Made by a program: the position numbers and the translations under genes. Below are positions 3,432 to 59,889 of a stretch of DNA of 64,000 bases, piece after piece. This stretch comes from Lachnospiraceae bacterium (GTDB lineage: Bacteria; Bacillota; Clostridia; Lachnospirales; Lachnospiraceae), in contig JBGVQN010000009.1 in the NCBI GenBank assembly GCA_045127535.1, forward strand, positions 54,786 through 118,785, read 5' to 3'. Every line of letters begins with the position of its first letter. Position 1 is the first letter of the stretch. Below the pieces are notes generated by a model. It saw only the letters and a list, made by a program, of their open reading frames with translations, did not search any database and was not told the origin of the DNA.

Positions 3432-3943
3432 GGTGTGACTGAACAGGTTGCAGCGTCAGGGCGTCAGTGTTCTCATTGACAAAAAGAATAGGAGATGCTA
3501 GAATAACGCTATCTGAAAAACGTTTGCAAGAGTCCTGTGTGAAATGATTCTGATACGGAGGCTCTTGCAATTGCGTGATATGATCTGACGGAGAGAGGTG
3601 AAAAGATGAGAAGATAATTTGCTTTTTGTGTACATGAAGATCGATAGCAGTATGGGTAAACATGCGCATACTGTTTCATCATGTTGCCAAAAGTGGATTA
3701 TGTTCTCATAACCTCTCTTTTTGTGTGCAGAAATGGATGAAAAGTGATGATGGTGCTATCATTCTTTTCTGAATATGAGGTGGTAGGATGTAATGGAACT
3801 GTTTGGCAGCAAATGGTTCCTGTTTTTGTTTATGGATCAGGAGCCGGCACTCTGCTTGTGAAGCAGAGAAATGGTAAATGTGTTACCAGGTAATGTGTTT
3901 CACAATTACCTGAAAGAGGTTACAGCAGATAGGAGAAAACCGT

Positions 3944-4744
3944 ATGAAAAATATTTTTATAGAAGGAATTCAGGGAATGGGCAAGTCCACCTTATTGAAT
4001 CGTATTGCTGCAGAACTGCCGGAATTACATGTGTGCAGAGAGGGAGATTATTCGCCCATTGAGCTGGCCTGGTGTGCATGGATGACAGAGGCAGAATATG
4101 ATCAGATGCTGGATTGCTATGAATCTATCCGTGAAGACATCATACAAAATACTGTTAGAGAAGGAAATCACTATATTGTTTCCTACACCAGGATCATTAC
4201 AGATGTGCCAAACTTCCACAGAGAACTGGAGAAATTTGAAATATACAATGGCAGAAGGACATTGCAGGAGCTGGAAAAAATCGTGCTTTCCAGATATGAG
4301 GGGTTTACGCAAAATGGGTATCTGTTTGAATGTGCATTTTTCCAGAATATCATAGAGGACTTGATTTTATTCCACCAGTTGGGGGATGATGAGATCGCAG
4401 CATTTTATAAAAGACTATACAGCAAAGTGAAGAAAGAAGATTTCCTGTTGCTGTATCTGTATGAGGATGGGATAGAGGATAATATAAAGATTATCCAAAA
4501 GGAGCGTTGTGACCAGCAGGGACAGGAGTTGTGGTATCCGCTGATGCTGCAGTATTTGATCAATTCGCCTTATGGAAAGCAGCAGGGGTATTGTGGCTTT
4601 GCAGATATGATCACCCATTTCCGACACAGACAGGAGCTGGAGCTGCGCATCATCCGTGAGATCATTGGAGACCATGCAGTGATCCTTCCGGCGAAGCAAT
4701 GGGACATGGATGCAATCCTGGCATTGATAAAATCAGGCAATTGA
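3944..4744 (+). CDS. P-loop NTPase, putative (deoxy)nucleoside/small-molecule kinase
   Basis: The N-terminus carries a Walker A, GIQGMGKST. The protein is 266 aa with no other recognisable motif. An RBS, AGGAGAAAA, precedes the ATG. Confidence 0.45.
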   Translation: MKNIFIEGIQGMGKSTLLNRIAAELPELHVCREGDYSPIELAWCAWMTEAEYDQMLDCYESIREDIIQNTVREGNHYIVSYTRIITDVPNFHRELEKFEIYNGRRTLQELEKIVLSRYEGFTQNGYLFECAFFQNIIEDLILFHQLGDDEIAAFYKRLYSKVKKEDFLLLYLYEDGIEDNIKIIQKERCDQQGQELWYPLMLQYLINSPYGKQQGYCGFADMITHFRHRQELELRIIREIIGDHAVILPAKQWDMDAILALIKSGN

Positions 4745-5130
4745 GAAATGCATGAACAGACACTTCGCAAAGCTGATATTAAGCATACTTTTGCAATTGC
4801 CTATTGATAAAATAAAAGGAGGAAGCAGGTTTTGCTGCGCAAAACGTTGCAGTACCTGCCAAAATGCACTTGTATATGAAAAAATCCTTCGTTATAATAC
4901 TCATATATGAATTGCAGATCTGAAACAAGGTCAATGCAGGGCATTTTGAAGTCTGAGAAGTTGGAACCTTTGGGATAGGTGAGGAATATGGCAAAAAAGA
5001 AAAGAGAGCATATGGTGTTTGATCAAATGTGGAAGCAGAAAAAAAAGCATTCCCTTTTCTGTAGTGAACAAACAAAGTGCCAAAAAGAAACAGATAAATG
5101 ATATATTGAAAACAAGGCATAGGAGTGAGT

Positions 5131-5913
5131 ATGAGCAATAAACGTACTTCCATAGCAGTTGTTCTGCTGACGATTATCATGACATTTATGGAAATGACTG
5201 GTTTACCGGCAAGATTATTTTTGAATATCCAGGCTGCAGACATCAATCCAATTTACTTTACGTTGATGGTGAATTTTGTCATAGCCGTTGCCATCTGCTG
5301 GCTGTTCCAAAAAACCATCATCAAAGACTGGAAGTTTGGATTGGGATGGAAAGGAGTATTCAATGGATGTATCCAATATGGAAAACCAGCAGCTATTGCA
5401 ACCATATGTGTAACCATAGCCTTTTGCGTAGGATTGGCACCCTTTGACAACACATCAACCATATGGCGGGTACTGATTGAGGGGATCGTGTATTACATTG
5501 GTGTAGGCATTATGGAGGAGCTTTATCTACGAGGGTTGCTGCAGAATATCATCGAAAAGTGGTTTGGAAAGAGTAAGAATGGAACACTGTATGCAATATT
5601 GATTGCAGCAGTATTATTTGGTCTGGGGCATATTTTTGGCGCACTGGGACAGCCAATTGGGACGATTGTATGTAAAACAGTTTGGGCAGCTGCTCTGGGC
5701 GTGTATTTTGGTGCAGTTTATGTAAAGACCCGTAATCTGTGGGTTCCCATCATTTTGCATTTGATAATTAATTTGTGTGGAATTCCATTCTGTTTTTCAA
5801 CCAGCAATCAGTATCCAACCATAGCATTGATTACCTGCCTGACATCGTATCTGTTGTTGGCAGTTTATGGGGTGTGGATCTTGAAAGAAGATCAGGAGAT
5901 AACATGTGAATAA
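5131..5913 (+). CDS. CPBP family intramembrane metalloprotease (CAAX protease-like)
   Basis: A multi-TM protein with the EELYLRG, FGLGH and HLIIN motifs, which are CPBP motifs 1-3. An RBS, AGGAG, lies 5 nt before the ATG at 5131. Confidence 0.75.
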   Translation: MSNKRTSIAVVLLTIIMTFMEMTGLPARLFLNIQAADINPIYFTLMVNFVIAVAICWLFQKTIIKDWKFGLGWKGVFNGCIQYGKPAAIATICVTIAFCVGLAPFDNTSTIWRVLIEGIVYYIGVGIMEELYLRGLLQNIIEKWFGKSKNGTLYAILIAAVLFGLGHIFGALGQPIGTIVCKTVWAAALGVYFGAVYVKTRNLWVPIILHLIINLCGIPFCFSTSNQYPTIALITCLTSYLLLAVYGVWILKEDQEITCE

Positions 5914-6004
5914 ATTTCAATCAATCTACAGGAGTATACAATTATGAGATTGACAACAAACAGACTGATTTTAAGGTAATCTGGTGACAGTTAGGAGGAC
6001 ACAT

Positions 6005-6559
6005 ATGAAGCATGCAGGAACCATACAAATGGAAACCAAACGTCTGATTTTAAGACGATTTACAGTAGAAGATGCCCCGGCGGCTTTTCGCAACTGGACC
6101 AGTGAAGACCAGGTTACCAAATTTTTGACCTGGCCTACCCATACAGATATTTCGGTTACAGAGGCTATTTTCAAGGATTGGGTGGAACACTATCAGGATA
6201 AAGCCTATTACCAGTGGGCCATTGTGCCAAAGGACTTAGGAGAACCAATTGGTTCCATCAGTGTAGTGGAGATGGATGAAAAGACAGAAAAGGTGCATAT
6301 TGGCTACTGTATTGGCAGTACATGGTGGAAAAATGGTTATACCAGCGAAGCCTTTGCAGCTATCATTCCCTTTTTATTTGAAACTGTGGAGGCAAAACGG
6401 ATTGAAGCCAGACACGATCCCAACAATCCAAACTCCGGAAAAGTGATGCAGAAATGTGGGCTGAAATACGAAGGGACACTGCGAAAGGCAGACTGGAACA
6501 ATCAGGGAATCGTGGATGCCAGTATGTATGGATTATTGGCAGAGGAGTATTATGCATGA
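6005..6559 (+). CDS. GNAT family N-acetyltransferase (RimJ/RimL-like)
   Basis: The N-terminus reads KRLILRRFTVEDA, which is typical of GNAT acetyltransferases. An RBS, AGGAGG, lies 7 nt before the ATG at 6005. Confidence 0.75.
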   Translation: MKHAGTIQMETKRLILRRFTVEDAPAAFRNWTSEDQVTKFLTWPTHTDISVTEAIFKDWVEHYQDKAYYQWAIVPKDLGEPIGSISVVEMDEKTEKVHIGYCIGSTWWKNGYTSEAFAAIIPFLFETVEAKRIEARHDPNNPNSGKVMQKCGLKYEGTLRKADWNNQGIVDASMYGLLAEEYYA

Positions 6560-6638
6560 ATATTGATTCATCTGAAACCATACCGGAAATACAGATACAA
6601 CAATGCTGCTGAAAAATCACACAGAAAAGAGGTTTTTT

Positions 6639-7130: not shown

Positions 7131-7139
7131 CAGATGGAT

Positions 7140-7574: not shown

Positions 7575-7618
7575 TAGAATCCTCCATTGTGAAGCGGCTG
7601 ACCGCTTCTTTTTTATTT

Positions 7619-7708
7619 AGGGAATTGCGAAATATAGTTATTGTAATGAATGCTTTAAAAACACAAATACTTCCCAAAGCTGATACGGACGCTGGTTTCG
7701 CAATGTCC
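7619..7708 (-). repeat. MITE-like palindromic intergenic repeat, minimal copy
   Basis: The termini are GGAATTGCGAA ... GGTTTCGCAATGTCC. The internal ACTTCCCAAAGCTGATA matches the TIR of the full copies. Confidence 0.6.
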
Positions 7709-7734
7709 TATTGGGATGTGCAGCAAGAGTAGTA

Positions 7735-8367: not shown

Positions 8368-8805
8368 TGCAACCTCCTATACATACAGAGAAAATGACAC
8401 AGACACCCATGCCCCTTTCACTGTGTAATTCAAAACAATAGAAACCCCAAAAAAGGATCCTCTACTGCATTCCAAAACCATAAAAAGCCTGACAACTACA
8501 CACACTCACCAGACTCCACCCAATATCATACCATGTCTGCCCCCGTTTGTGTAAAAAAAATGCAGGCTTGTGCAAGGAATCTCTATTGTCAGACAGTGCC
8601 AGATTCGTTTATAATAATATCAAAATACAAGCATATGGAATCTGACATAGGATACTCCTGATACACCGGTGAGACCTCATGACACATCCAATGTCAGCAT
8701 TTTTAGAGATTTCGGGCATACTTACCGGCTAAAGCAAAACGTGTCCAGTGAAAAACAATTACCCCAGCCCGTAAGTCCGTTCTAAATCTCCTAAAGTGCA
8801 TCCAT

Positions 8806-9026
8806 AGACAATTATGAAACGATATTCAAAATCAGCTTTGGGAAGTATCTGCAAGCAAATATTTGCTAAGCAGGACTCTTGAAAACGCCGGCACTTTAAA
8901 TTTTGTGCTGTAGGCACAAAATTTATTAGTACCGCTGCGTTTTCACCGAAGCGAGAGCGTGTCCTGCGTGCAAATATTTGCTTGCAGATACTTCCCAAAG
9001 CGTCCGGTACCGAGTTGTGCAATTGC
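8806..9026 (+). repeat. MITE-like palindromic intergenic repeat, full copy
   Basis: Left TIR, CAATTATGAAACGATATTCAAAATCAGCTTTGGGAAGTATCTGCAAGCAAATATTTGC. Core, TAAGCAGGACTCTTGAAAACGCCGGCACTTTAAATTTTGTGCTGTAGGCACAAAATTTATTAGTACCGCTGCGTTTTCACCGAAGCGAGAGCG. Right TIR, ...GCAAATATTTGCTTGCAGATACTTCCCAAAGCGTCCGGTACCGAGTTGTGCAATTGCC. Confidence 0.8.
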
Positions 9027-9058
9027 CTGTCCATATGCCAAAATGAAAGGAGAAAAAT

Positions 9059-10189
9059 ATGCAGTATAGAGAGTTTGGTTCCACAGGTGAAAAGGTGTCT
9101 GCACTGGGGTACGGATGTATGAGACTTCCGTTGTTAGATCCAAAGGATGGTAAGTCCATTAATGAGGCAGAAGCCATCCGCATGATCCGCACCGCCATTG
9201 ATGCCGGTCTGAATTATGTAGATACCGCCTATCCATACCACGACGGTGAAAGCGAAAGACTGGTAGGCAAGGCATTAAAGGACGGGTATCGTGAAAGAGT
9301 CTTTCTGGCCACCAAGCTGCCAATGTGGATGGTACATAAGACAGAGGATTTTGATCTGTACTTAAATGAGCAGTTAGGAAAGTTAGACACAGACCACATA
9401 GATATGTACATGCTGCATGCCATGGACAAGAGCCGCTATGAGGAGATGTGCAAATATCATTTGACAGACAAGCTGACAGAAGCCAAGGCCTCCGGCAAGA
9501 TTCGTTATGCAGGATTTTCCTTCCATGATGATGCAGAGACCTTCCGCACCATCATTGACGCATATGACTGGGATTTCTGCCAGATTCAGATGAACTATAT
9601 TGATGTCAACAATCAGGCAACCATAGCAGGTATGGAGTATGCAGCGTCTAAGGGCATTGCAGTGATCATTATGGAGCCTCTGTTAGGAGGCAAGCTGGCA
9701 AATCCGCCAAAGCAGGTAGCCAAGGCGCTTTCTCCGGAAAAGACAGCAGTAGAATGGGCGCTGGATTTCCTCTGGAACCGTCCGGAGGTCAGTGTGATCT
9801 TGAGCGGTATGAGCGATATGCAGCAGACCATGGACAATATGCTTTATGCAGACCGCTCTGCAGCAGGCATGCTTTCTGATGCAGAGCTGGAGATGTTTGT
9901 CCAGGCCAAGGAGATCTACGATACCAAGGCAGTGGTGCCATGTACCAAGTGCCGCTACTGTATGCCATGTCCATTTGGACTGGATATCCCGGAATTGTTT
10001 GAGTCCTATAACCGTACTGCCACTCAAGGTATGAAGGAGGCACGCAAGCTGTATGACAGCATGGAGGTAAAGGCAGATGCCTGCCGCAAGTGCCACCGCT
10101 GTGAAAAAGAGTGTCCACAGCACATCAAGATCAGTGAAACTATGGAAGAACTGGCAGGTGTTTTTGCAGAGGAATCATGCTGTGACTAA
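9059..10189 (+). CDS. aldo/keto reductase fused to C-terminal 4Fe-4S ferredoxin-like domain
   Basis: An AKR N-terminus with a YDTAxxY-like motif, and two Cys clusters, CTKCRYCMPCP and CRKCHRCEKECP. An RBS, AAAGGAG, precedes the start. Confidence 0.8.
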   Translation: MQYREFGSTGEKVSALGYGCMRLPLLDPKDGKSINEAEAIRMIRTAIDAGLNYVDTAYPYHDGESERLVGKALKDGYRERVFLATKLPMWMVHKTEDFDLYLNEQLGKLDTDHIDMYMLHAMDKSRYEEMCKYHLTDKLTEAKASGKIRYAGFSFHDDAETFRTIIDAYDWDFCQIQMNYIDVNNQATIAGMEYAASKGIAVIIMEPLLGGKLANPPKQVAKALSPEKTAVEWALDFLWNRPEVSVILSGMSDMQQTMDNMLYADRSAAGMLSDAELEMFVQAKEIYDTKAVVPCTKCRYCMPCPFGLDIPELFESYNRTATQGMKEARKLYDSMEVKADACRKCHRCEKECPQHIKISETMEELAGVFAEESCCD

Positions 10190-10405
10190 AAGGTTTCAAA
10201 ATTGCCTGCAAAAAATCCTGATCATGATACAAAAAGAACCAGAAAGTGAAAATTTTATCATGAAAAAGACCAATTATCGTAAGAGAAGCGTAAAGATATT
10301 GTGTATATCCTATGCTAAAATTACCCTATATCAATAGAAGAAACAGATAGTTGCGTTTCATCACCACCTGGAAAAAGTATCAGTGATGTGATATAAGGAT
10401 AGCGC

Positions 10406-10843: not shown

Positions 10844-11634
10844 AAAAATTATTTTTATTTGATATTGACGGAACCATTGCCATTGACAATGACTTGTTAG
10901 ATGGAACAATGGATTTACTGAACTATATTGATGGAATTGGAGGAAAGGCAATTTATATTACCAATAATTCCACCAAAAGCAGAAAAGATTATATAGAAAA
11001 GTTTGCCTGCTGGAAAATTTCTGCGGCAGCAGATCAGTTTATTACGGCTTCTTATGCAACAGCAGTATATTTGCGGGAGCATCATATGCAGGATAAGATT
11101 TTTGTACTGGGAACGGCTTCTCTGGTGAAGGAGCTGAGAGAAGAAGGGTTTCTGGTGACAGAAGAGGCAGAGCCGGATGTGGCAGCTGTGCTGGTTGGAT
11201 TTGACAATGAACTGACCTACAGCAAAGTGGAAAAAGCCTGCCAATTGCTATTGACCCATCCGGATATGCCGTATCTGGCAACCAATCCGGATTTATGCTG
11301 TCCCACCAGTTTTGGCAGCGTGCCGGACTGCGGTGCGATCTGCAGGCTGTTAGAGTGTGCAGTAGGCAGACAACCAGTGTATCTTGGGAAACCAAGTCCC
11401 AATATTGTACAGCTTTGCCTGGAGCAGACAGGCTTTGCAGCAGAAGAAACATTGGTAGTAGGAGACCGGCTGTATACAGATATTGCCTGTGGATTGAATG
11501 CAGGAGTGGATACTGCAGTGGTATTTACAGGAGAAGCCAGACCAGAAGATTGTGTGGAGACAGAATATAAACCTACGTATGCATTTCCTACAGTAAGAGA
11601 GCTGTATGAATGGTGTTTCGAAGGAAAACTGTAG
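10840..11634 (+). CDS. HAD-IIA family hydrolase (NagD-like sugar-phosphatase)
   Basis: The N-terminus FLFDIDGT is HAD motif I, and the C-terminus VGDRLYTDI is motif IV. Confidence 0.7.
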   Translation: MKKLFLFDIDGTIAIDNDLLDGTMDLLNYIDGIGGKAIYITNNSTKSRKDYIEKFACWKISAAADQFITASYATAVYLREHHMQDKIFVLGTASLVKELREEGFLVTEEAEPDVAAVLVGFDNELTYSKVEKACQLLLTHPDMPYLATNPDLCCPTSFGSVPDCGAICRLLECAVGRQPVYLGKPSPNIVQLCLEQTGFAAEETLVVGDRLYTDIACGLNAGVDTAVVFTGEARPEDCVETEYKPTYAFPTVRELYEWCFEGKL

Positions 11635-11781
11635 CATCCACGTACTTATAAAAAGATATTCTGGGGAAAATCATCATACAGATAGGTCTGAAAAAATGGA
11701 ACCAAAAGAACTGCATCTGTATATACATAATTTTCTAAAAAAAGGCTATACTGATTCATAAATGTCCCTTTGGAGGAACTT

Positions 11782-12762
11782 ATGAAAAAGATAGCCTTTT
11801 TTGATGCAAAATCATATGACAAGATCTGGTTTGACCATTGGAATAATGGACGTTTTCAGATCAAATACCTGGAAAATAAGCTGACAGCAGATACAGTATC
11901 CATGGCAGCAGGATATGATGCAGTCTGTGCTTTTGTCAATGACAATTTGGATAAGACGGTCATTGACAGTCTGTACAGGGAAGGGATCCGGGTAGTTGGC
12001 ATGCGTTGTACCGGATACAACAATGTAGATCTGCAGGCAGCAGCAGGGCAGGTTGCCATCCTCAGGGTGCCAGCTTATTCTCCCTATGCAGTAGCAGAAC
12101 ATGCCATTGCCATGTTACAGACCTTGAACCGGAAGATCCACAAAGCTTATATCCGTACCAGAGATTACAATTTCAGCCTGGAACGCCTGATTGGATTTGA
12201 TTTACATGGAAAAACAGTAGGAGTGATCGGAACCGGACAGATTGGAAGGGTCTTTGTACAGATTTGCAACGGGTTTGGCATGAAGGTACTGGCATATGAC
12301 CCATATCCAGTGGAAAATCTGGCAGCAGAATATGTACCATTGGAGCGGATTTTTAAAGAAAGCGATATCATTTCTCTTCATTGTCCTTTGACAGAAGACT
12401 CACGTCACATCATCAACGCAGACAGTCTTGGACAAATGAAGAAAAATACCATATTGATCAATACATCCAGAGGCGCCCTGGTTGACTCAAGAGCGCTGGT
12501 GGATGCGCTGGAAAATGGTCAGATAGCAGGAGCCTGCCTGGATGTATATGAAGAAGAAACCAGTCTGTTTTTTGAAGACAATTCCAATGAAACCAGAAGA
12601 GATGAGGTGCTGGTAAAGATCGTGTCTATGCCAAATGTGATCCTGACCTCTCATCAGGCATATCTGACCCATGAAGCATTAAGCAACATTGCCAGTACCA
12701 CTCTTCAGAATCTGGAAGACTATTTTGACGGAAAAGAACTGAAAAATGCAATCAAAGCTTGA
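11782..12762 (+). CDS. ldhA: D-lactate dehydrogenase / D-isomer-specific 2-hydroxyacid dehydrogenase
   Basis: The product appears collinear with fermentative LdhA in a by-eye comparison; it carries VPAYSPYAVAEHA, the NAD-binding GxGxxG motif, and the catalytic R, E and H context. An RBS, GGAGG, lies 5 nt before the ATG at 11782. Confidence 0.8.
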   Translation: MKKIAFFDAKSYDKIWFDHWNNGRFQIKYLENKLTADTVSMAAGYDAVCAFVNDNLDKTVIDSLYREGIRVVGMRCTGYNNVDLQAAAGQVAILRVPAYSPYAVAEHAIAMLQTLNRKIHKAYIRTRDYNFSLERLIGFDLHGKTVGVIGTGQIGRVFVQICNGFGMKVLAYDPYPVENLAAEYVPLERIFKESDIISLHCPLTEDSRHIINADSLGQMKKNTILINTSRGALVDSRALVDALENGQIAGACLDVYEEETSLFFEDNSNETRRDEVLVKIVSMPNVILTSHQAYLTHEALSNIASTTLQNLEDYFDGKELKNAIKA

Positions 12763-14920: not shown

Positions 14921-15661
14921 ATGATAGATATGCACATTCATATCGTTCCAGGCATTGATGATGGTGCCAGAACAACAGAGGAAGCCCGCCGTATGCTGCT
15001 GCAGGCAGCAGATGGCGGTACCACAGGAATGATTGTGACCCCTCATTGTAATATAGAGGGGTATTTTGAAAATTTTGAAAGCCCCAGGTTAGAAGCGGCA
15101 TTTCAAAGCTTTGCTGAACTGGCAAAGCAGACGGTACCGAATATGAAGATTGGTTTTGGACAGGAAGTATACGGTACATTTGAGGCACCGGAGCTCATAC
15201 GGGAAGGGAGACTGCGTACTTTACATAACAGCAGATATGTATTAATGGAGTTTCCATTTGACGGCAGTTTTGGATACATGACGGAAATTCTCATGCGCAC
15301 CTGTGATTATGGATTTGTATCTGTGGTAGCACATCCGGAGCGATATGACGTGATACAGGAAGTACCATGGAAAGTAGAAGACTGGGTAGATGCAGGACTT
15401 TGCATTCAGGTGAATAAAGGCAGTATCCTGGGCCGTTTTGGTTCCAGACCCTATTATGCAGCAGAATATCTGCTGCAGCATGGACTGGTTCATCTGTCTG
15501 CCAGTGATGCCCACCGCACCAATACCCGGACTGCTTATTTAAATGAGCTTAGGAGCGTATTAAACCGAGATTATGGACGGGCTATTACACAGATGATGTT
15601 AGAGGAGAATCCTGACCGCATCTGGAATAATCAGGAGCTGTTATTGCCAAAGGATTTGTGA
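14921..15661 (+). CDS. CpsB/YwqE-family protein-tyrosine phosphatase (PHP domain)
   Basis: The N-terminus reads MIDMHIHIVPGIDDGA, which is a PHP-domain signature. An alternative start lies at 14873. Confidence 0.65.
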   Translation: MIDMHIHIVPGIDDGARTTEEARRMLLQAADGGTTGMIVTPHCNIEGYFENFESPRLEAAFQSFAELAKQTVPNMKIGFGQEVYGTFEAPELIREGRLRTLHNSRYVLMEFPFDGSFGYMTEILMRTCDYGFVSVVAHPERYDVIQEVPWKVEDWVDAGLCIQVNKGSILGRFGSRPYYAAEYLLQHGLVHLSASDAHRTNTRTAYLNELRSVLNRDYGRAITQMMLEENPDRIWNNQELLLPKDL

Positions 15662-15730
15662 TGATCCTGAAAATGTCCGGTAATGTGTTTCACAATTGCC
15701 TAATCCTTTATTAAAGTGAAAGGAAACAAC

Positions 15731-18252: not shown

Positions 18253-18386
18253 CCTTTTTTTAGGCAAAAAAAGGTAAGGTGTTTCACAATCGCTGTTTTC
18301 AAAAAAGAATAAAGGTTGACAAAATACGACACTGGTTATAATATATAGCTATCAGCATAAAAATATAACCAAAAGGGAATGATATA

Positions 18387-23459: not shown

Positions 23460-24239
23460 ATGAGTGTACAGTTGTTAGACAAGACAAGAAAAATTAATAA
23501 GCTGCTTCACAATAATAATTCCAGCAAGGTTGTTTTCAATGATATTTGTCTGGTACTGAGTGAAATTCTCAATTCCAATATTCTGGTCATCAGTAAAAAA
23601 GGCAAAGTATTAGGAATTGGACACAGAAACGGTGTGGATGAAATCAATGAGCTGCTGCAGGGACAGGTGGGCGGTTTTATTGACCATATGCTCAATGAGC
23701 GTCTGTTAAGTGTATTGTCTACCAAGGAAAATGTCAATCTGGCAACCTTGGGATTCACAGAGGAAAATGTGAGAAAATACCAGGCCATTATTACACCCAT
23801 TGATATTGCCGGGGAGCGTCTGGGAACCTTGTTCATTTACAAGAGCGGAGAGGGATATGAAATTGATGACATTATTCTCAGTGAATACGGTACGACTGTA
23901 GTGGGATTGGAAATGATGCGTTCTGTCAATGAGGAAAATGCAGAAGAAAACCGGAAGGTCAGCATTGTAAAATCAGCAATTAATACATTGAGCTTTTCAG
24001 AACTGGAAGCCATTACCCATATCTTTGATGAACTGGATGGCAATGAGGGCATACTGGTAGCCAGCAAGATTGCAGACAGAGTGGGTATTACCCGTTCTGT
24101 GATTGTGAATGCACTCCGTAAGTTCGAAAGCGCTGGTGTCATTGAATCCCGTTCCTCTGGTATGAAGGGAACCTATATTAAGATCCTCAATGATGCGGTA
24201 TTTGACGAGCTGAAGAAGATCGATACCAAGAATATGTAA
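23460..24239 (+). CDS. codY: GTP-sensing pleiotropic transcriptional repressor CodY
   Basis: A GAF N-terminus and a C-terminal wHTH reading ASKIADRVGITRSVIVNALRKFES. Confidence 0.9.
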   Translation: MSVQLLDKTRKINKLLHNNNSSKVVFNDICLVLSEILNSNILVISKKGKVLGIGHRNGVDEINELLQGQVGGFIDHMLNERLLSVLSTKENVNLATLGFTEENVRKYQAIITPIDIAGERLGTLFIYKSGEGYEIDDIILSEYGTTVVGLEMMRSVNEENAEENRKVSIVKSAINTLSFSELEAITHIFDELDGNEGILVASKIADRVGITRSVIVNALRKFESAGVIESRSSGMKGTYIKILNDAVFDELKKIDTKNM

Positions 24240-24512
24240 TGCTATTTCTCAATAGAGAGACCCGCCCAGAGCAGTATATTATATGGAAGAAACTCCTGTA
24301 AAAGCAGCAAGTGGATTTGCAGAAGATGTTTTGCCAGATCCGGATATAGAATATGCAGAAAAGATAGAATTCATGCTTGATTTCTATCTTTTTTTGTGTT
24401 ATAGTGGTAAGGCTGAACATACACGTATGGGAATGACGTGGACGGTGCCGCAATGCGGTCCCATGGGAACGAACCATACGGAAGCAAAAACCAAATCAAA
24501 AGGAGAACGAAA

Positions 24513-25256
24513 ATGAGCGTTATTTCTATGAAGCAGCTGCTGGAAGCAGGCGTACACTTTGGACATCAGACAAGAAGATGGAACCCTAAGATGGCTCCAT
24601 ACATCTACACCGAGAGAAACGGTATTTACATCATCGACTTACAGAAGTCTGTAGGTAAGGTAGACGAAGCTTACAAGGCTGTAGCTGATATCGCAGCTGA
24701 AGGTGGTACAATCTTATTCGTTGGTACTAAGAAGCAGGCTCAGGATGCTGTAGCAAGCGAAGCACAGAGATGTGGTATGTACTATGTAAACCAGAGATGG
24801 TTAGGTGGTATGCTGACCAACTTCAAGACCATCCAGAGCAGAATTGAGCGTCTTCGTGCAATTGAGAAGATGTCTGAGGATGGAACTTTCGACGTACTGC
24901 CAAAGAAGGAAGTAGTTGAATTAAAGAAGGAATGGGACAAGTTAGAGAAGAACCTTGGCGGTATCAAGGATATGAAGAAGATCCCAGATGCAATCTTCGT
25001 TGTTGACCCTAAGAAGGAGAAGAACTGTGTACAGGAGGCTCACAACTTAGGCATCACTCTGATCGGTATTGCAGATACCAACTGTGATCCAGAAGAATTA
25101 GATTATGTAATCCCAGGCAATGATGATGCAATCAGAGCCGTTAAGTTAATTGTTTCCAAGATGGCAGATGCTGTAATCGAGGCTAAGCAGGGTGAAGTAA
25201 CTGTTGAGACTGAGGAAGCAGAGGTTGTTGAAGAGGAAACAGCAGTAGAAGAGTAA
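24513..25256 (+). CDS. rpsB: 30S ribosomal protein S2
   Basis: The N-terminus reads [27 protein letters not shown]. Confidence 0.9.
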
Positions 25257-25398
25257 TCTTCACAATCTGAACCTAAGAAGGCGGCATTCCACAGGGATGC
25301 CTGCCGCTTTCATTCATGACAGCGGAAAGTTCGCAAGGCATACTTTTGCTGTTTGAAACAAGAGAAAGCATATTATCATATATCAGGAGGGTTTTACA

Positions 25399-26340: not shown

Positions 26341-26361
26341 AAAGAAGTGTTTAAGTATAAA

Positions 26362-26405
26362 ATAGAGTGCTATTGTTTACAAGATAATAGCACTCTATTT
26401 TTTGT
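26362..26405 (+). terminator. rho-independent terminator of rpsB-tsf
   Basis: A 13-bp stem, ATAGAGTGCTATT / AATAGCACTCTAT, followed by TTTTTTG. Confidence 0.7.
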
Positions 26406-26424
26406 GAAAATAATTTTTAAAAAT

Positions 26425-26462
26425 CGTAAAAAAATAGGAGTAACTTACTAGTTACTCCTATT
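26425..26462 (-). terminator. rho-independent terminator of the amidase cassette
   Basis: Hairpin AGGAGTAACT-tact-AGTTACTCCT, followed by TTTTTTT on the minus strand. Confidence 0.65.
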
Positions 26463-26469
26463 CGTCTTA

Positions 26470-27459: not shown

Positions 27460-27474
27460 ATAATCGTCCTCCAT

Positions 27475-28254: not shown

Positions 28255-28347
28255 TACTTATTACAGTATTTCTTCATAAACATATTTATCAGAAGTAATT
28301 GGCAACATCCAATATGTATGATATGATTTATCTTTATATTGAATATA

Positions 28348-35117: not shown

Positions 35118-35187
35118 CGGGTAAAACAATATCCCCCATAATCTGATGCCCACACTCTTGTAAACGTCCGGGAAAGGAGAATGAAAG

Positions 35188-36029: not shown

Positions 36030-36305
36030 ACAGTCACATCTAAGGAAAGGTGATGAAGCAGAGGAGTACTGTTTGGAGGCGGACAGAGAGGTGGCCGGAT
36101 GTTGAGAGGCCATTACGTACAGAAGGATAGGAAGGTAGCTGCTGAACTGGATTTTTGAACGGCAAGACTCATTAGAGAATCCCGGTTAGTCCCCGTTATC
36201 GGTCACAAGGGAATCGGAGCAGCAGCTCCCGTTCTGAAATGAAGGTGGTACCGTGCATATGCGCCCTTTATGGAGATCATTCCATAAAGGGCTTTTTTAT
36301 TTTAT
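36030..36305 (+). ncRNA. T-box riboswitch leader (tRNA-Val-responsive) with terminator
   Basis: The T-box sequence AATGAAGGTGGTACCGTG is at 36238-36255. A terminator, GCGCCCTTTATGGA...TCCATAAAGGGC followed by TTTTTTATTTT, comes next. The position upstream of valS fits. Confidence 0.7.
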
Positions 36306-36491: not shown

Positions 36492-39143
36492 ATGGAGGAT
36501 ATGATGAAAGAATTAGAAAAAACATACAGCCCTGCTGATATAGAGGAGCGTCTGTATGAAAAGTGGTTGGACAAAAAGTATTTTCACGCAGAAGTAGATA
36601 GAAGCAAGAAGCCATTTACCATTGTAATGCCGCCGCCAAATGTAACCGGTCAGCTGCACATGGGTCATGCATTGGACAACACCATGCAGGACATTCTCTG
36701 CCGTTATAAGAGAATGCAGGGGTATAACGTATTATGGCAGCCAGGTACAGACCATGCAGCCATTGCCACAGAGGTAAAGGTCATTGACAAGCTGAAAAAA
36801 GAAGGCATTGATAAGAATGACATTGGACGTGAGAAGTTTTTAGAGCATGCCTGGGAGTGGAAGCGTGAGTACGGCGGAAGAATCATCAACCAGTTAAAGA
36901 AGTTAGGTTCTTCTGCAGACTGGGACAGAGAGCGTTTTACCATGGACGAGGGCTGCTCCAAGGCAGTAGAGGAAGTCTTTATCCGTCTGTATGAAAAAGG
37001 CTGGATCTACAAAGGCTCCCGTATCGTAAACTGGTGTCCTGTATGTAAGACCTCCATTTCTGATGCAGAGGTAGAGCATACAGAGCAGGCAGGCCATTTC
37101 TGGCATATTAAGTACCCGATCGTAGGGGAGGAAGGCAGATTCGTAGAGATCGCCACCACCAGACCGGAGACCATGCTTGGAGATACTGCAGTGGCAGTCA
37201 ATCCGGAGGATGACCGTTACAAGGATATCGTAGGCAAGATGCTGCTGCTGCCTCTGGTCAACAAGGAGATCCCGGTAGTGGCAGATCCATATGTAGACAA
37301 AGAGTTTGGAACCGGTTGTGTCAAGATCACCCCAGCCCATGATCCTAACGACTTTGAAGTAGGAAAGCGTCACAGCCTGCCGGAGATCAACATCATGAAT
37401 GATGATGCCACCATCAACAATCACGGCGGTAAATATGCAGGCATGGATCGTTACGAGGCAAGAAAGCTGATCGTACAGGAATTAGATGAGCTGGGCTTAC
37501 TGGTAAAGATCGAAGACCACGTACACAATGTAGGTACCCATGACCGTTGTAAGACCACCATTGAGCCACTGATCAAGCAGCAGTGGTTTGTAAAGATGGA
37601 TGAGATGATCAAGCCTGCTGTAGAGGCAGTAAAGTCCGGTGAGATCAAGCTGCTGCCGGAGCGCATGGACCGTACTTACTTTAACTGGACAGACAACATC
37701 CGTGACTGGTGTATTTCCAGACAGCTGTGGTGGGGACACAGGATCCCGGCTTACTATTGTAAGGATTGTGGTGAAATGGTTGTGTCCAGAGACGCAGTGA
37801 CGGTATGCCCTAAGTGCGGCAGCGTACACATGGAGCAGGATCCGGATACATTGGACACCTGGTTTTCTTCTGCACTGTGGCCATTCTCCACATTGGGCTG
37901 GCCGGAGCAGACAGAGGATCTGGATTACTTCTATCCGACAGACGTACTGGTAACCGGCTATGATATTATCTTCTTCTGGGTCATCCGTATGATCTTCTCC
38001 GGCTATGAGCAGACCGGTAAGGCGCCGTTCCATACGGTACTGTTCCATGGTCTGGTCAGAGACTCTCAGGGACGTAAGATGAGTAAGTCTCTGGGCAATG
38101 GTATCGATCCATTAGAGGTCATTGATAAATATGGTGCAGATGCCCTGCGTCTCACCCTGATTACCGGTAATGCACCAGGTAATGACATGCGTTTCTACTG
38201 GGAGAGAGTAGAAGCATCCCGTAACTTTGCCAACAAGCTGTGGAACGCATCCCGTTTCATTATGATGAACATGGAAAAGGCATCCTCAGACAATGTCACT
38301 CTGGCAGATCTGACCAACGCAGACAAGTGGATTCTGTCCAAGGCAAACCGTCTTGCCAAGGAAGTGACTGAAAATATGGACAAGTATGAAATGGGTATTG
38401 CTGTACAAAAGGTTTACGATTTTGTATGGGAAGAATTCTGCGACTGGTATATCGAGATGGTAAAGCCACGTCTGTGGAATGCAGAGGACAAGACCCAGGC
38501 AGCTGCCATCTGGACATTAAAGACTGTCCTGATCCAGTCCTTAAAGCTGCTGCACCCATTCATTCCATTTATTACAGAGGAGATCTTCTGCAACCTGCAG
38601 GATGCAGAGGAATCCATTATGATCTCTGAATGGCCGCAGTTCCAGAATGCATGGGACTTCGCCCAGGAGGAAAATGCAGTAGAGACCATCAAGGAAGCAG
38701 TACGCAGCATCCGTGCAGTACGTCTGTCCATGAATGTACCACCAAGCAAAAAGGCTACCATCTATGTAGTCAGCGAGCAGGACAAGGTACGTGAGATCTT
38801 TGAGACCTCCAAGGTATTCTTTGCACAGCTTGGTTCTGCAAGTGAGGTACTGGTACAGGCTGATAAGACCGGCATCGGGGAAGATGCAGTCTCTGCTGTG
38901 ACAGCAGATGCAGTGCTGTATATGCCTCTGGCAGAGCTGGTTGACATCTCCAAGGAGATCGAGCGCCTGCAGAAGGAAGCAGAAAAGCTGACCAAGGAGC
39001 TGGCACGTTCCAAGGGCATGTTAAGCAATGAGAAGTTTATCAGCAAGGCACCTGCTGCCAAGATCGCAGAGGAACAGGAGAAGCTGGCACGCTACGAAGC
39101 AATGATGGCCCAGGTACAGGAGAGACTGGAGGCACTGCAGTAA
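36492..39143 (+). CDS. valS: valine--tRNA ligase
   Basis: The class I HIGH motif PPNVTGQLHMGHA, KMSKS, and a C-terminal coiled coil. Alternative starts lie at 36501 and 36504. Confidence 0.9.
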   Translation: MEDMMKELEKTYSPADIEERLYEKWLDKKYFHAEVDRSKKPFTIVMPPPNVTGQLHMGHALDNTMQDILCRYKRMQGYNVLWQPGTDHAAIATEVKVIDKLKKEGIDKNDIGREKFLEHAWEWKREYGGRIINQLKKLGSSADWDRERFTMDEGCSKAVEEVFIRLYEKGWIYKGSRIVNWCPVCKTSISDAEVEHTEQAGHFWHIKYPIVGEEGRFVEIATTRPETMLGDTAVAVNPEDDRYKDIVGKMLLLPLVNKEIPVVADPYVDKEFGTGCVKITPAHDPNDFEVGKRHSLPEINIMNDDATINNHGGKYAGMDRYEARKLIVQELDELGLLVKIEDHVHNVGTHDRCKTTIEPLIKQQWFVKMDEMIKPAVEAVKSGEIKLLPERMDRTYFNWTDNIRDWCISRQLWWGHRIPAYYCKDCGEMVVSRDAVTVCPKCGSVHMEQDPDTLDTWFSSALWPFSTLGWPEQTEDLDYFYPTDVLVTGYDIIFFWVIRMIFSGYEQTGKAPFHTVLFHGLVRDSQGRKMSKSLGNGIDPLEVIDKYGADALRLTLITGNAPGNDMRFYWERVEASRNFANKLWNASRFIMMNMEKASSDNVTLADLTNADKWILSKANRLAKEVTENMDKYEMGIAVQKVYDFVWEEFCDWYIEMVKPRLWNAEDKTQAAAIWTLKTVLIQSLKLLHPFIPFITEEIFCNLQDAEESIMISEWPQFQNAWDFAQEENAVETIKEAVRSIRAVRLSMNVPPSKKATIYVVSEQDKVREIFETSKVFFAQLGSASEVLVQADKTGIGEDAVSAVTADAVLYMPLAELVDISKEIERLQKEAEKLTKELARSKGMLSNEKFISKAPAAKIAEEQEKLARYEAMMAQVQERLEALQ

Positions 39144-39158: not shown

Positions 39159-39360
39159 CGACTACCCGGACGGAGTTAGCCAGACTGGATGCATTTGCAC
39201 GCAAAACACGCTCTCGCTTCGGGAAGTACGCAGCGGTTCTAAGGCCGCAGACAGGCAAAATCAGTCGTAAGTAAACTTACGGCTGATTTCACCTGTCTGC
39301 GGCCTAAGAACCGGCGTCCTTCAGAGTTTTGTTTAGCAAAGGCAGCCAGCCTGGCTAACT
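39159..39360 (-). repeat. diverged variant of the repeat family containing a ~75-nt near-perfect palindrome
   Basis: CGCTCTCGCTTCGG...CGCAGCGG matches the reverse-complement core. Its own TIRs are GGAGTTAGCCAGACTGG and CCAGCCTGGCTAACTCC. The internal hairpin spans 39236-39311. Confidence 0.55.
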
Positions 39361-39633
39361 CCTGGGTATTGGTAAATCTCCAGGTGTATTTGTAAATGTG
39401 GAATGTGGTCGACTTAGCAGGAAACTGGTTGCTGCAGAGTGCAAAGTATATTTGCAAGCATGGAAATGCGTCTATGCGGGCAAGGCCTGTGAGCTGGTGC
39501 ATAAAGTGGACTGCAGTGTAGCATGGCAGTTGTGAATAAGAAGGTAGGGAAGCAGGTTTTCACGGGGGATTCGTATAAATGCGGAGCGTGGAGATCTGCT
39601 TTTTATATCGATGTTTTACAGAGTGTCAGGGAA

Positions 39634-39904
39634 GGTGTTTTGCAATCGACTATTCTCATATTTGAACAATAACGAAAGTCTGCTACGTATCAGCTTTGTG
39701 AAGTGCCTGTCAGAAAATGTTTTCTAAGCAGGCTCTTAAAAACGCCGGCACTTTAAATTTTGCACCGTAGGTGCAAAATTTATTAGTACCGCTGGGTTTT
39801 TACCGAAGCGAGAGCATGCAAACGTATCATAAATGATACGTCGCGTGCAAACATTTTCTGACAGGCACTTCACAAAGCGTCCGGTAACAAGTTGTGCAAT
39901 TGTC
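39634..39904 (+). repeat. MITE-like palindromic intergenic repeat, full copy
   Basis: It shares the core with 8806-9026. The central hairpin is TTTTGCACCGTAGGTGCAAAA. There is an extra CGTATCAT-aa-ATGATACG hairpin. The TIR reads CTTTGTGAAGTGCCTGTCAGAAAATGTTTT. Confidence 0.8.
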
Positions 39905-39930
39905 TATTTCAGATTAGTTGGAAGGAGAAG

Positions 39931-49509: not shown

Positions 49510-49545
49510 GCTGGTCTGATTAATAGATTAAGGTGATTTAAGAAT

Positions 49546-49590
49546 CAGACACTTCACAAAGCGTCCAGTAACGTGTTTTTCGTAATTGTC
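49546..49590 (+). repeat. solo right-terminus fragment of the repeat
   Basis: CAGACACTTCACAAAGCGTCCAGTAACGTGTTTTTCGTAATTGTC. Confidence 0.6.
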
Positions 49591-49623
49591 TATAAAAAAT
49601 AATATAATGAGAGGAGACACAGT

Positions 49624-50094: not shown

Positions 50095-50402
50095 GGCTAC
50101 TCCTGTTTGCGTTTGCTGGTACATTTTTGGGGCATTATACAGCATAAATACAAAACAAAATGGCTCAAAAATATAAAATAAAACACATCAAAAAACCGGA
50201 TTTGCTGATGGTAATTACTGGTGGCAATATGGCATATACGAGACCGGATGGTGTGAAGATCATACCAATCGGGTGTCTGAAAGACTAGTAACAGGACAGA
50301 GGGAACTGGGTAAAATACGGAAAATGTGAAAAATGCAGAAAAAGTCGCTCATCTTTTTGTGATATACTTCAAAAAGTCGCTCATTTTTTTGTATATTGTA
50401 TA

Positions 50403-50508
50403 GGTAATTGCGGAACGGTATTCCATATCAGATTTGAGAAGTATTTGTAAGAAAATATTTTCTTACAGATACTTCTCAAAGCGTCCGTTCAGATGTTTCG
50501 TAATTACC
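50403..50508 (+). repeat. core-less copy of the repeat (left and right TIR fused into one long hairpin)
   Basis: GGTAATTGCGGAACGGTATTCCATATCAGATTTGAGAAGTATTTGTAAGAAAATATTTTCTTACAGATACTTCTCAAAGCGTCCGTTCAGATGTTTCGTAATTACC. The central 42 nt form a perfect palindrome. Confidence 0.75.
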
Positions 50509-51015
50509 TAATATTGTATAAAGAAGGGAGTGTGCGTATGGGCGAAATATATTTAAAACGTAAAGTGAATACGTTTTTGCTGAAGGATTATTTGAATGAA
50601 CCATAACTGCCTACAAGCCGTAGGCTGTATGAGATTGTATCTGTTAGCGGTTGCAGTTTTTATGAAAGACATGGCTTGCATAGAGCAGAAATGGCTGGTG
50701 GAGCTTGGCAAAAATGAATGATGTGCAGAAAAAATATAGATAAATGGTATTTTTTACAAAATTGTGCTATAATGAAAAAGGGTCATATATGAGCTATTTT
50801 GGTTCAAAAAGCAAAAAAAGGATAATATATTATCCTTATCAGCAGGAGGAAATATGTTTGAGCAGCTGAAATTTCCTAGTGAAATTGCAAAAGATGTTGC
50901 TGTAAAAGAAAAAAATGTCCATTTTAAAAAGATATAAAAATTTGTAGAGAACATAGGATCGTATTGATTGAAATGGAATCAATGAACCGACTAAAAAATG
51001 ATTTAAAAATGTTTT

Positions 51016-51160: not shown

Positions 51161-51197
51161 CGCTGCATGAAATATATTTCAGGAGTTGGAGGTAATT

Positions 51198-56704: not shown

Positions 56705-56747
56705 GAAAAAGTATGGGAAGCTCCTTTCTTTGAACGGGAACAATTTA

Positions 56748-56989
56748 GGCAATTGCGAAACTCTTTACCGGACGTTTTGCGAAGTGCTTGTCAGAAAATA
56801 TTTTCACGCGACGTATCATTTATGATACGTTTGGCGCGCTCTCGCTTCGGTAAAAACGCAGTGGTACTAATAAATTTTGCACCTGTGGCACAAAATTTAA
56901 AGTACTGGCGTTTTTAAGAGCCTGCTTAGAAAACATGTTCTGACAGACATTTCACAAAGCTGGTACGAAACCTAGTTTCGCAATTATCT
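56748..56989 (-). repeat. MITE-like palindromic intergenic repeat, full copy, reverse orientation
   Basis: It is the reverse complement of the 39634-39904 type. The termini are GGCAATTGCGAAACTC ... AGTTTCGCAATTATC. The central hairpin is TTTTGCACCTGTGGCACAAAA. Confidence 0.8.
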
Positions 56990-57120
56990 AAGCATGAACA
57001 ACAAAAGTACTCGTAGATCTTTCTCTGTGTTTATGAATAATGGGAAAGAGGACGACAAACACGGATATTCTGGAAATATGCGGCAGAAAAATACGAAGAA
57101 CCTTGAGGTTTTGGTGAACT

Positions 57121-58560: not shown

Positions 58561-58651
58561 AGCCTTGCAACCGTCCGAGATGATAGAAAAGCTATAGGTA
58601 TAAGACCTGCAGCTTTCTATAGAAAACCCAAGTGATTGAGAAACGTTGGAT

Positions 58652-58693
58652 CAGACGCTTCACAAAACGTCCGTCATGTGTTTCACAATTACC
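58652..58693 (+). repeat. solo right-terminus fragment of the repeat
   Basis: CAGACGCTTCACAAAACGTCCGTCATGTGTTTCACAATTACC. Confidence 0.6.
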
Positions 58694-58708
58694 TGTGGGA
58701 ACAGTTAA

Positions 58709-58948
58709 ACAATTGCGAAGCGGTATTCAATATCAGCTTTGGGAAGTATCTGTAAGAAAATGTTTTCTAAGCAGGACTCTTGAAAACGCCGGTACTTTAA
58801 ATTTTGCGCCACAGGCGCAAAATTTATTAGTACCGCTGCGTTTTCACCGAAGCGAGAGCGGGTCAAACGTATCATAAATAATACGTCGCGTAAAAACATT
58901 TTCTTACAGATACTTCCCAAAGCGTCCGTTCACGTGTTTCGCAATTGC
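58709..58948 (+). repeat. MITE-like palindromic intergenic repeat, full copy
   Basis: The termini are CAATTGCGAAGCGG ... GTGTTTCGCAATTGC. The central hairpin is TTTTGCGCCACAGGCGCAAAA. TIR, CTGTAAGAAAATGTTTTC / AAAACATTTTCTTACAG. Confidence 0.85.
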
Positions 58949-58983
58949 TTAATGGAAAAAGTATTTGAAAGGAACAAAAGGTC

Positions 58984-59889
58984 ATGAGCAGAAAGGTATT
59001 GGTAACTGGAGGAACTGTATTTGTCAGCAGGTATGTGGCAGAGTATTTTGCCGGTCAGGGAGATCAGGTATATGTATTAAACCGCAACAGCAGACCCCAG
59101 TCTCCCGGTGTGACTTTGATTGAGGCAGACCGGAGTCAGTTAGGAGATGTGTTAAAGGGATATGACTTTGATGCAGTATTGGATATTACTGCATATACAA
59201 AAGAGGACGTAGCACATCTGCTGGATGCGTTGGACAGTGTGGGACAGTATATTTTCATCAGCTCCAGTGCAGTATATCCGGAAACACTGCCCCAGCCTTT
59301 TACTGAGGAGCAGGTATGCGGCCCCAATGCAGTATGGGGTGCATATGGTACCAATAAATTGGAGGCTGAACAGTACCTGTCAGAGCGGGTACCGCAGGCG
59401 TACATTCTCAGACCTCCTTATCTGTATGGCCCTATGCAGAATCTGTACCGGGAAGGACTGCCCTTTGACTGCGCAGAACAGAACCGTCCCTTTTACCTGC
59501 CGGGAGATGGCAGCATGCCGCTGCAGTTTTTCCATGTAGAGGATCTGTGCCGGTTTATGGAATGTCTGTTGGACAAGCAGCCAGAGCAGCGGATCTGGAA
59601 TGTGGGAAATCCAGAGATCGTGGATATCCGTCAGTGGGTAACCTTGTGCTATGAAGCAGTAGGTGTCACGCCGGAGTTTGTATCAGTAGATCAGACCCAT
59701 GGACAGAGAAGCTATTTCTGCTTCCATGATTATGGATATCAGCTGGATGTGACAAAGCAGCAGGCGCTGATGCCGGAGGTAAAGCCTCTGGCAGAGGGAT
59801 TAAAGGAATCCTATGCATGGTATCAGGTACATAAGGATTCTGTAGTGAAAAAACCTTATCTGGAATATATTGATACAGTGTTGAGATAA
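58984..59889 (+). CDS. NAD-dependent epimerase/dehydratase family protein (SDR)
   Basis: The N-terminus VLVTGGTVFVSRYVAEYF is a GxxGxxG-like Rossmann motif. A YxxxK context is present. Confidence 0.7.
   Translation: MSRKVLVTGGTVFVSRYVAEYFAGQGDQVYVLNRNSRPQSPGVTLIEADRSQLGDVLKGYDFDAVLDITAYTKEDVAHLLDALDSVGQYIFISSSAVYPETLPQPFTEEQVCGPNAVWGAYGTNKLEAEQYLSERVPQAYILRPPYLYGPMQNLYREGLPFDCAEQNRPFYLPGDGSMPLQFFHVEDLCRFMECLLDKQPEQRIWNVGNPEIVDIRQWVTLCYEAVGVTPEFVSVDQTHGQRSYFCFHDYGYQLDVTKQQALMPEVKPLAEGLKESYAWYQVHKDSVVKKPYLEYIDTVLR

Follow-up and report, generated by a model that had tools for sequence, protein, structure and literature searches.

The window, by which we mean the whole stretch of DNA that was analyzed, comprises 64,000 nucleotides (nt) of contig JBGVQN010000009.1 from an assembly of a Lachnospiraceae bacterium, and the names of distantly homologous proteins, together with its SpoVA genes, suggest that the host is an uncultured, spore-forming member of this family. 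Its intergenic DNA carries many copies of a small mobile hairpin, which represents a previously undescribed family of foldback repeats, akin to MITEs (miniature inverted-repeat transposable elements), of uncultured gut-type Lachnospiraceae. Termini of this repeat stand shortly upstream of functionally unrelated genes, encoding a P-loop protein, an aldo-keto reductase, a hydrolase, an ATP-grasp protein, SpoVAC and an epimerase, and copies also occur within operons (trkA-trkH, thyX-dut and cpsB-hydrolase). Repeat finding, alignment and profile searches (nhmmer envelopes) showed that a full copy is approximately 245-260 nt long and consists of imperfect inverted arms of ~65 nt around a core that forms one or two small hairpins; the arm tips share 16 nt (TAGGCAATTGCGAAAC ... 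GTTTCGCAATTGCCTA), i.e., terminal inverted repeats are present. The element is noncoding, only spurious open reading frames (ORFs) overlapping its copies, which range overall from 70 to 260 nt. The window holds four full copies, one arms-only copy, two short degenerate two-ended copies, one core in different arms, one core fragment and eight solo termini. Copies and fragments number ~16 in the 64 kb and account for ~15% of its noncoding DNA. A long rod-like hairpin is predicted for every copy, with stabilities of -95 to -133 kcal/mol in ordinary copies and of -95 to -315 kcal/mol across all copies folded.

With the end of a terminus defined as the last base of the octamer equivalent to CAATTGCC, the start-facing termini end at 3910, 9027, 15700, 39904, 49590, 50508 and 58949 and are followed by ATG 3944, ATG 9059, ATG 15731, TTG 39934, ATG 49624, ATG 50537 and ATG 58984, leaving gaps of 33, 31, 30, 29, 33, 28 and 34 nt, respectively. 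Each gap contains an A/T-rich stretch and a Shine-Dalgarno (SD) sequence and nothing else. A sequence-only reading of this DNA had drawn attention to this regular placement, and all seven of the termini that it cited are real, lie 28-34 nt from a start and have an SD in the gap; the end coordinates that it gave, however, mixed definitions, and its start at 39931 had to be moved to the TTG at 39934, which the database protein P0241 (324 aa) fits exactly. The start at 50537, 28 nt past the terminus at 50508, belongs, as it had noted, to an ORF of only 22 aa with an SD. These termini are part of solo R-type termini at 3884-3912 (~27 nt, matching 15676-15702 at 24 of 26 bases), 15660-15702 (cpsB/hydrolase spacer) and 49546-49592 (ahead of a SpoVAC/SpoVAEB-family gene), of full copies at 8805-9029 (lacking the accessory hairpin and located in a 5' untranslated region [UTR] between TCCATA flanks), 39663-39906 and 58706-58951, and of the arms-only copy at 50401-50510, which has no core; all of these are on the plus strand. 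In the window, the terminal 16-mer GTGTTTCACAATTGCC occurs nine times with three or fewer mismatches vs 0.9 expected.

On a curated gene map, with the repeats grouped into 14 independent loci, the insertion point lay 15-25 nt ahead of the start of a long gene at six loci, vs 4.5% of non-repeat intergenic positions (binomial p = 1.7e-5 against uniform intergenic placement), and counting the 15-aa and 22-aa ORFs described below as genes gave an enrichment with p = 3.7e-8. These results confirm that the observed placement is real and statistically solid. Start-proximal placement is not universal: outward termini also lie 45 nt (dut), 92 nt (18294), 132 nt (trkH) and 199 nt (10206) from starts, and others adjoin stop codons (4734-4749, which overlaps one; 7708; 56748) or further copies.

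Orthologous regions of relatives (designated here by L numbers) were found via three protein searches, with protein identities of ~68-87% and ~150 kb of DNA in total. The family is patchy among them, and different loci are occupied in related species: L135 (73%) has many copies, L134 and L144 (77-84%) have few, L134 having one, L145-L147 (68-70%) have the repeat, L131 (87%) has only degenerate remnants, seen by eye, and no copy was detected in the orthologous regions of L136 and L137 (85%) or L140 (78%). Empty sites are found in L134, L136, L140, L144, L146 and the window itself. The L135 copy at 3278-3508 has GCTGCATAG on both sides, and at this place the window and L131 have an uninterrupted, overlapping ATGA gene junction; the insertion replaced the last nine codons of the upstream membrane-protein ORF, and its end lies 31 nt from the downstream ATG. 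The L147 copy at 5624-5842 has an exact 11-bp TGAATGGTTTC on either side, a sequence of which the upstream stop codon is part, in a spacer originally of 23 nt, with its terminus 29 nt from ATG, and the L145 copy at ~11530-11815 splits a spacer that is 19 nt long in L146, its end likewise lying 29 nt from ATG. In the cpsB-hydrolase spacer, which is empty in L134 (45 nt), L135 has a complete short copy, the window has the solo terminus at an identical phase, and L131 has a remnant of an inner arm. The spacer between valS and the ATP-grasp gene is empty in L144, where its 102 nt comprise the valS terminator, ~12 free nt, an SD and the start codon. Exactly these ~12 free nt are where the window has an old solo terminus followed by a full copy, and another copy is found between the valS stop and its terminator. 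Finally, the trkA-trkH gap is 17 nt or overlapping in relatives vs 416 nt in the window, with a reversed copy within.

Target-site duplications are 8-11 bp long and exact for the L147 and L135 3278 copies described above and for the arms-only copy at 50401-50510 (ATATTGTATA), while older copies have degenerate 9-mer flanks (TGGGAACAG / TGGAAAAAG at 58706-58951 and TTCTCATATT / TTTCAGATT at 39663-39906). New copies abut older solo ends at 58695/58706 and 39652/39663. Insertion also reshapes the end of the upstream gene, the stop of the gene at 3944-4744 lying inside an element tip (GGC AAT TGA). Because duplications flank the copies, sister genomes have empty sites and the same position was hit repeatedly and independently, we conclude that the element is mobile and lands beside the ribosome-binding site (RBS), as the sequence-only reading had proposed in one of its three suggestions, an insertion-site preference for DNA next to an RBS. 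A MITE of the IS630/mariner type with a TA duplication was also considered, and was rejected because the TA belongs to the inverted repeat (TAGG...CCTA) and the true duplications are 8-11 bp. We also observed inner-arm fragments (…CTTGTAAACGTCCGG, …CTTGAAAGCGTCC) without the terminal 20 nt that adjoin SDs, at 35145-35175 in the window and in the cpsB-hydrolase and reductase leaders of L131, which suggests further, more decayed insertions at gene starts.

The composition of the ~30-nt interval was examined with 14 termini from the window and related loci that lie 28-34 nt from a start, 13 of which were aligned on the terminus and the 14th of which, the copy in the reductase 5' UTR of L135, was counted by eye. 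Conservation ends 2-3 nt beyond CAATTGCC and resumes only at the SD; because it stops there, and empty sites show likewise, the RBS-bearing spacer is host DNA. The spacing is the sum of a tip of 2-4 nt, a duplication of 8-11 bp, a further 6-9 nt (in six of the seven datable insertions), the SD and the usual spacer between SD and start. The first G of the SD falls at +22 in eight of the 14 termini (seven of the 13 in the alignment) and lies between +16 and +23 overall. Either end can face a start, as do the L-type ends at 4801 and at L145 11566, so nothing specific to the R terminus is required; the excess of R over L ends facing SDs (7 vs 2) was not significant. Moreover, three of the nine termini that face no long gene have an SD-like motif at the canonical distance, with a 15-aa ORF (4801), a 22-aa ORF (50508) or no start codon (56748, minus strand) behind it, compared to a background of 1.2% (p = 1.4e-4, for a motif defined post hoc). 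Very short ORFs with a strong SD were seen in otherwise empty intergenic DNA at 4832-4879 (15 aa), 50537-50605 (22 aa) and 50855-50935 (~26 aa), two of the three being directly downstream of element termini.

We consider it probable that the termini stand ~30 nt before starts because a MITE-like element integrates just upstream of the RBS, and not by promoter or operator action of its end. The copies would be non-autonomous foldback elements, in which terminal inverted repeats ending TAGGCAATTGCGAAAC / GTTTCGCAATTGCCTA enclose the structured core, and a putative transposase, acting in trans, would move them with 8-11 bp staggered cuts. Integration and survival would occur just upstream of an SD, with the right edge of the duplicated target 6-9 nt before GGAG, and the end of the terminus would thus lie ~21 nt ahead of the SD and 28-34 nt ahead of the start. 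Two forces may shape this outcome, namely a target preference for the A-rich or purine-rich DNA ahead of SDs, and purifying selection against insertions that break a stop, terminator, promoter or ribosome landing zone, in operon spacers that are often only ~20-45 nt. Older copies would decay to solo termini, and new copies would re-land in the regenerated target. The anatomy of the element, its duplications, the empty sites and the spacing were shown; the kind of transposase, the relative weights of targeting and selection, and the lack of a dedicated promoter or operator role for the terminus are inferences. Much of the 28-34 nt range can be accounted for by short spacers, the need to keep stop, terminator and SD, and a probable ban on huge hairpins where the ribosome lands, and the same phase in long spacers, the re-use of targets, the sharp mode of the SD phase and the SD-like motifs without genes suggest an added target preference. 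A stronger version, which we regard as possible but tentative, is that the element or its transposase actively recognizes SD-like DNA (an A-rich tract followed by GGAG) in a fixed phase, with GGAG lying 6-9 nt past the end of the duplication and 21 nt past the terminus, such that translation initiation regions serve as a 'safe haven' and the core is recognized by the machinery. Comparable safe-haven targeting is seen with Tn7 at glmS and Ty3 at Pol III starts; to our knowledge, an SD-directed target rule has not been described for bacterial MITEs.

Among the alternatives, the one that survives best, although we think it unlikely, is that placement is passive, i.e., that the element inserts anywhere in A/T-rich noncoding DNA and that selection, short spacers and the ribosome footprint, which would allow no large hairpin closer than ~28 nt to a start, leave the positions observed. 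This would fit the many target spacers that were originally only 17-45 nt long, in which 28-34 nt is what a 2-4 nt tip and an 8-11 bp duplication permit between stop and SD, and it would fit the roughly half of the loci that lie elsewhere, past stop codons or terminators. However, copies in long spacers have the same 28-34 nt, including 8805-9029 in a ~100-nt 5' UTR, 50401-50510 with 300 nt free upstream, and 58706-58951. Also against passive placement are the re-use, twice, of an identical target by newer copies, the three termini that face SD-like motifs without a long gene, and the concentration of SDs at +22.

The core bears on a second alternative. Across the window copies (8862-8974, 39720-39852 and 58763-58896 on the plus strand; 56801-56933 and 39194-39340 on the minus strand) and the copies of L135, L134 and L145-L147, it keeps the invariant unpaired bases GCCGG.ACTT ... 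TTAG.A.CCG.TGCGTTTT.A.CGAAGCG and a constant GC-GNRA-GC mini-hairpin with the loops GAGA, GCAA, GGGA, GAAA and GGAA. Compensatory changes were found at nine of the 18 consensus pairs of the core, and the outer arms and the apical hairpin of the core may differ wholly between copies yet still pair. This signature is a strand-specific structure beyond what a plain MITE would be expected to have. The same core is also found inside long, near-perfect palindromic arms, in the window at 39165-39372, in L135 at 1385-1720 and 10034-10296, and in L134 at 1573-1765; these arms are unrelated to the arms that end in CAATTG, and the 85-nt arms in L135 are 99% matched. Each type of variant arm, considered as a possible separate multicopy family, was unique in the window and the relatives' DNA examined. 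The palindromic-arm cores may represent several subfamilies, or the core may be a unit that enters palindrome centers or whose arms are regenerated by arm-to-arm copying.

These features raise the possibility, to which we give little credence, that the hairpin or terminus is a cis-acting RNA module that sets mRNA processing, stabilizes the message or insulates translation, its distance from the SD being fixed by selection. Correia, ERIC and BOX elements provide precedents for roles at the RNA level (PMC3049150, PMC10969869). Besides the compensatory changes and the GNRA mini-hairpin, such a role would fit the transcribed positions of copies, downstream of a conserved promoter and inside operons, the very stable stems and the gene-proximal position of all solo ends in the window. 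Against it, single mismatches in the stems on the sense strand carried no RNA-strand signature (G:U 12 vs A:C 17), and the orientation of the core relative to local transcription (nine sense, seven antisense) was not significant. Furthermore, the hairpin cannot be formed by solo ends, whose local folding was not exceptional (z = -2.0, -0.35 and -0.23), leaving a small hairpin unsupported as a conserved feature. The family is also patchy between close species, and the neighboring genes are functionally unrelated.

The sequence-only reading had further suggested that the terminus might provide the downstream gene with an outward promoter or transcription start; our results speak against this, and we regard it as highly improbable. 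Promoters are known from Correia elements, which would be the model for such a role, and from other MITEs (PMC10969869), and the TTCACA in the terminus matches five of the six bases of a -35 hexamer. A promoter consensus scan found weak 9/12 matches, both using this TTCACA, that overlap two of eight termini (15689-15717 and 18283-18310), and no match at the remaining six termini. However, a -10 element 17 nt past TTCACA would start transcription in or after the SD (e.g., at ~15724 for ATG 15731), and the spacer is filled by the SD region. The aldo-keto reductase gene has a strong sigma-A promoter at 8586-8615 (plus strand, TTGTCA-18-TATAAT) that is conserved in four species and lies upstream of the repeat; thus, the copy at 8805-9029 is inside the 5' UTR. 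Other copies are internal to operons, L-type ends also face starts, and relatives without the element express these genes as well. The least credible of the functions considered is that of an operator (GGTAAT-N10-ATTACC), likewise suggested in that reading, by which a DNA-binding regulator would co-regulate the downstream genes, in that, although a similar 16-26 nt motif precedes several starts at a similar distance, the palindrome is present only in the 3887 copy and, in imperfect form, in the 15676 copy and is absent from the family consensus, the true partner of the terminus is the other inverted repeat of the element, the motif also faces stops and other copies, the downstream genes are functionally unrelated and their orthologues in sister species lack the motif. 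The upstream promoter, the copies inside operons, the use of either end and the unconserved palindrome thus leave promoter and operator roles unsupported and support an insertion preference.

Several observations weigh against integration just upstream of the RBS as the explanation for the spacing. Approximately half of the loci are not beside a start codon, and the test on SD-like motifs was defined after the data had been seen; moreover, the ORFs of 15 and 22 aa may be genuine genes. No transposase or other ORF was found in or beside copies by Pfam scans of ~20 of the ~54 window genes, including those that flank copies, nor did these reveal an autonomous element with matching ends. The sample is small, consisting of one 64-kb window and ~150 kb of relatives, and some start-proximal copies in different species may share one ancestral insertion. 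All eight of the solo termini in the window (3884-3912, 8750-8765, 10190-10208, 15660-15702, 18279-18294, 39579-39652, 49546-49592 and 58652-58695) face downstream, which a plain MITE model does not predict; upstream-facing solo ends are known in relatives (L147 11007-11027 and L148 4689-4709). The covarying stems and the GNRA mini-hairpin are likewise not predicted for a plain MITE and could reflect function.

The remaining copies are described in order along the window. A short two-ended copy lies at 4734-4803 on the minus strand, its left tip providing the stop of the gene at 3944-4744 and its right, L-type tip (terminus 4801) standing 30 nt from a TTG with a strong SD that opens only the 15-aa ORF. 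A degenerate short two-ended copy at 7618-7711, with no strand assigned, occupies the gap between the minus-strand genes thyX (stop 7735) and dut (ATG 7574), 26 nt from the thyX stop and 45 nt from the dut start; next to it, at 7591-7617, a canonical plus-strand intrinsic terminator (GAAGCGG-CTGA-CCGCTTC-TTTTTT) between the two genes is antisense to the operon. On the plus strand, an old degenerate terminus at 8750-8765, which closely precedes the full copy at 8805, lies within an older palindrome, and a terminus fragment at 10190-10208 begins 3 nt past the reductase stop, 199 nt from the next start. A 16-nt terminus fragment at 18279-18294 (plus strand) is found downstream of the MazG terminator and, as had been noticed from the sequence alone, upstream of a promoter, TTGACA-17-TAATAT at 18316-18344.

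The core copy in unrelated palindromic arms at 39165-39372 (minus strand) sits between the valS stop and the intrinsic valS terminator (39550-39606, plus strand), which is host DNA conserved in L144 and forms the upstream bound of the insertion zone. The old degenerate solo R terminus at 39579-39652 (plus strand) abuts the duplication of the newer full copy at 39663-39906; its coordinates are an nhmmer envelope that runs into the valS terminator's 3' arm, and only 39612-39652 is clearly terminus. Just upstream of the arms-only copy, a 32-nt unit (AAAAAGTCGCTCATYTTTTTGTRATATA...) is directly repeated in tandem at 50342-50395. The full copy at 56746-56990 is reversed (minus strand) inside the trkA-trkH operon, and its R end faces AAAGAAAGGAG, an SD-like motif of the minus strand that has no gene behind it. 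This copy and the full copy at 58706-58951 form an inverted pair around trkH that is 88% complementary over 176 nt, a potential substrate for trkH inversion, and their target duplications have GGGAACA in common. An old solo R terminus at 58652-58695 (plus strand) abuts the duplication of the copy at 58706-58951, and every short-read metagenome assembly of this species is interrupted within the latter, 81 nt before the epimerase gene. Lastly, a 3'-half core fragment at 61667-61739 (plus strand) lies beside a 35-bp hairpin at 61593-61664.

Other features of the window include a T-box leader (Rfam RF00230, 101.6 bits) at 36044-36271, upstream of valS (36492-39143), and a region of lower G+C content (0.39-0.41 vs ~0.45) at 24000-32000, which contains a minus-strand amidase/LysM cluster, a polysaccharide pyruvyl transferase gene and DUF5717/DUF5716 genes, and in which no repeat copies were found. 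At the right edge (63596-64000), tandem strong promoters (TTGACA-17-TAAGAT at 63624-63652 and TTGACA-16-TATACT with TG at 63773-63800) and leader-like sequence together look like the beginning of a ribosomal RNA operon, and ~63668 is where metagenome contigs of the same species end. Searches with proteins from the window edges led only to short metagenome contigs, broken at repeats or at the rRNA leader, or to no record.

If integration just upstream of the RBS holds genome-wide, this would be a bacterial mobile element with a landing site defined by a translation signal, which would explain how it can multiply to high copy number within a compact genome and yet not kill genes, and a very stable hairpin would be present in the 5' UTRs of many unrelated genes; if placement is merely filtered by selection, it would be an ordinary new MITE family. 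In practical terms, short-read assemblies of these Lachnospiraceae are broken at gene starts, start-codon calling is misled because ORFs extend into the repeat, and the C-termini of upstream genes are altered; the repeat could also serve as a strain-typing marker.

Searches for known relatives of the repeat returned no family. Rfam 15 at gathering threshold yielded only the valS T-box, and an E-value search of two copies gave nothing beyond generic hairpin noise from miRNA models. A full copy searched by BLAST in plasmid and phage collections had no match, a scan of viral contigs for the core gave one chance match, and two metagenome scans with specific patterns gave no match. A scan of a genome collection with CAGRYACTTCNCAAAGC, which is too degenerate a pattern, gave 113 chance matches and no real one, and a literature search found no description of the repeat family. 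The inverted repeats, target duplication, lack of coding capacity and many copies with filled and empty sites are nevertheless those of bacterial MITEs. DDE elements of the IS4, IS5 (IS903) and ISAs1 types have inverted repeats and duplications of ~8-12 bp, and their internally deleted derivatives are mobilized in trans. The repeat is like such derivatives in its inverted repeats and the size of its duplications, although no parent element with matching ends was found. It also resembles REP/REPIN (RAYT) and IS200/IS605-derived palindromes in being hairpin-forming and extragenic and in preserving structure over sequence, and the covarying stems and strand-specific mini-hairpin of the core recall these elements; unlike the present repeat with its varied 8-11 bp duplications, they make no target duplication, use a fixed 4-5 nt target and are much shorter.

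Among elements noted for their position beside genes, Correia elements of Neisseria (CREE/NEMIS) are similarly small, noncoding, multicopy and bounded by inverted repeats, often lie directly upstream of genes, are co-transcribed and vary in presence. However, they have a TA target, a length of 100-155 bp, proven outward promoters, an IHF site and RNase III sites, whereas the repeat described here has 8-11 bp duplications, no convincing outward promoter by consensus scan, a structured core and ends phased to the SD. The pneumococcal BOX, RUP and SPRITE repeats are likewise small, modular, nested elements of Firmicutes that occupy operon spacers and 5' UTRs, and short-read assemblies break at them (PMC3049150). 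They differ in that there is no sequence similarity, in that the pneumococcal repeats are over-represented between convergent genes while those in the window are enriched before starts, and in that RUP duplicates TA. Neisseria REP2 and Borrelia IR-A/IR-B also stand directly upstream of many unrelated genes (PMC3184786), but contain the promoter, RBS and ATG, whereas here the RBS and start are host DNA and the repeat stops ~21 nt before the SD. Altogether, the repeat is closest in behavior to Correia and RUP/BOX-type small interspersed repeats, yet it is a member of none of these and constitutes a new family.

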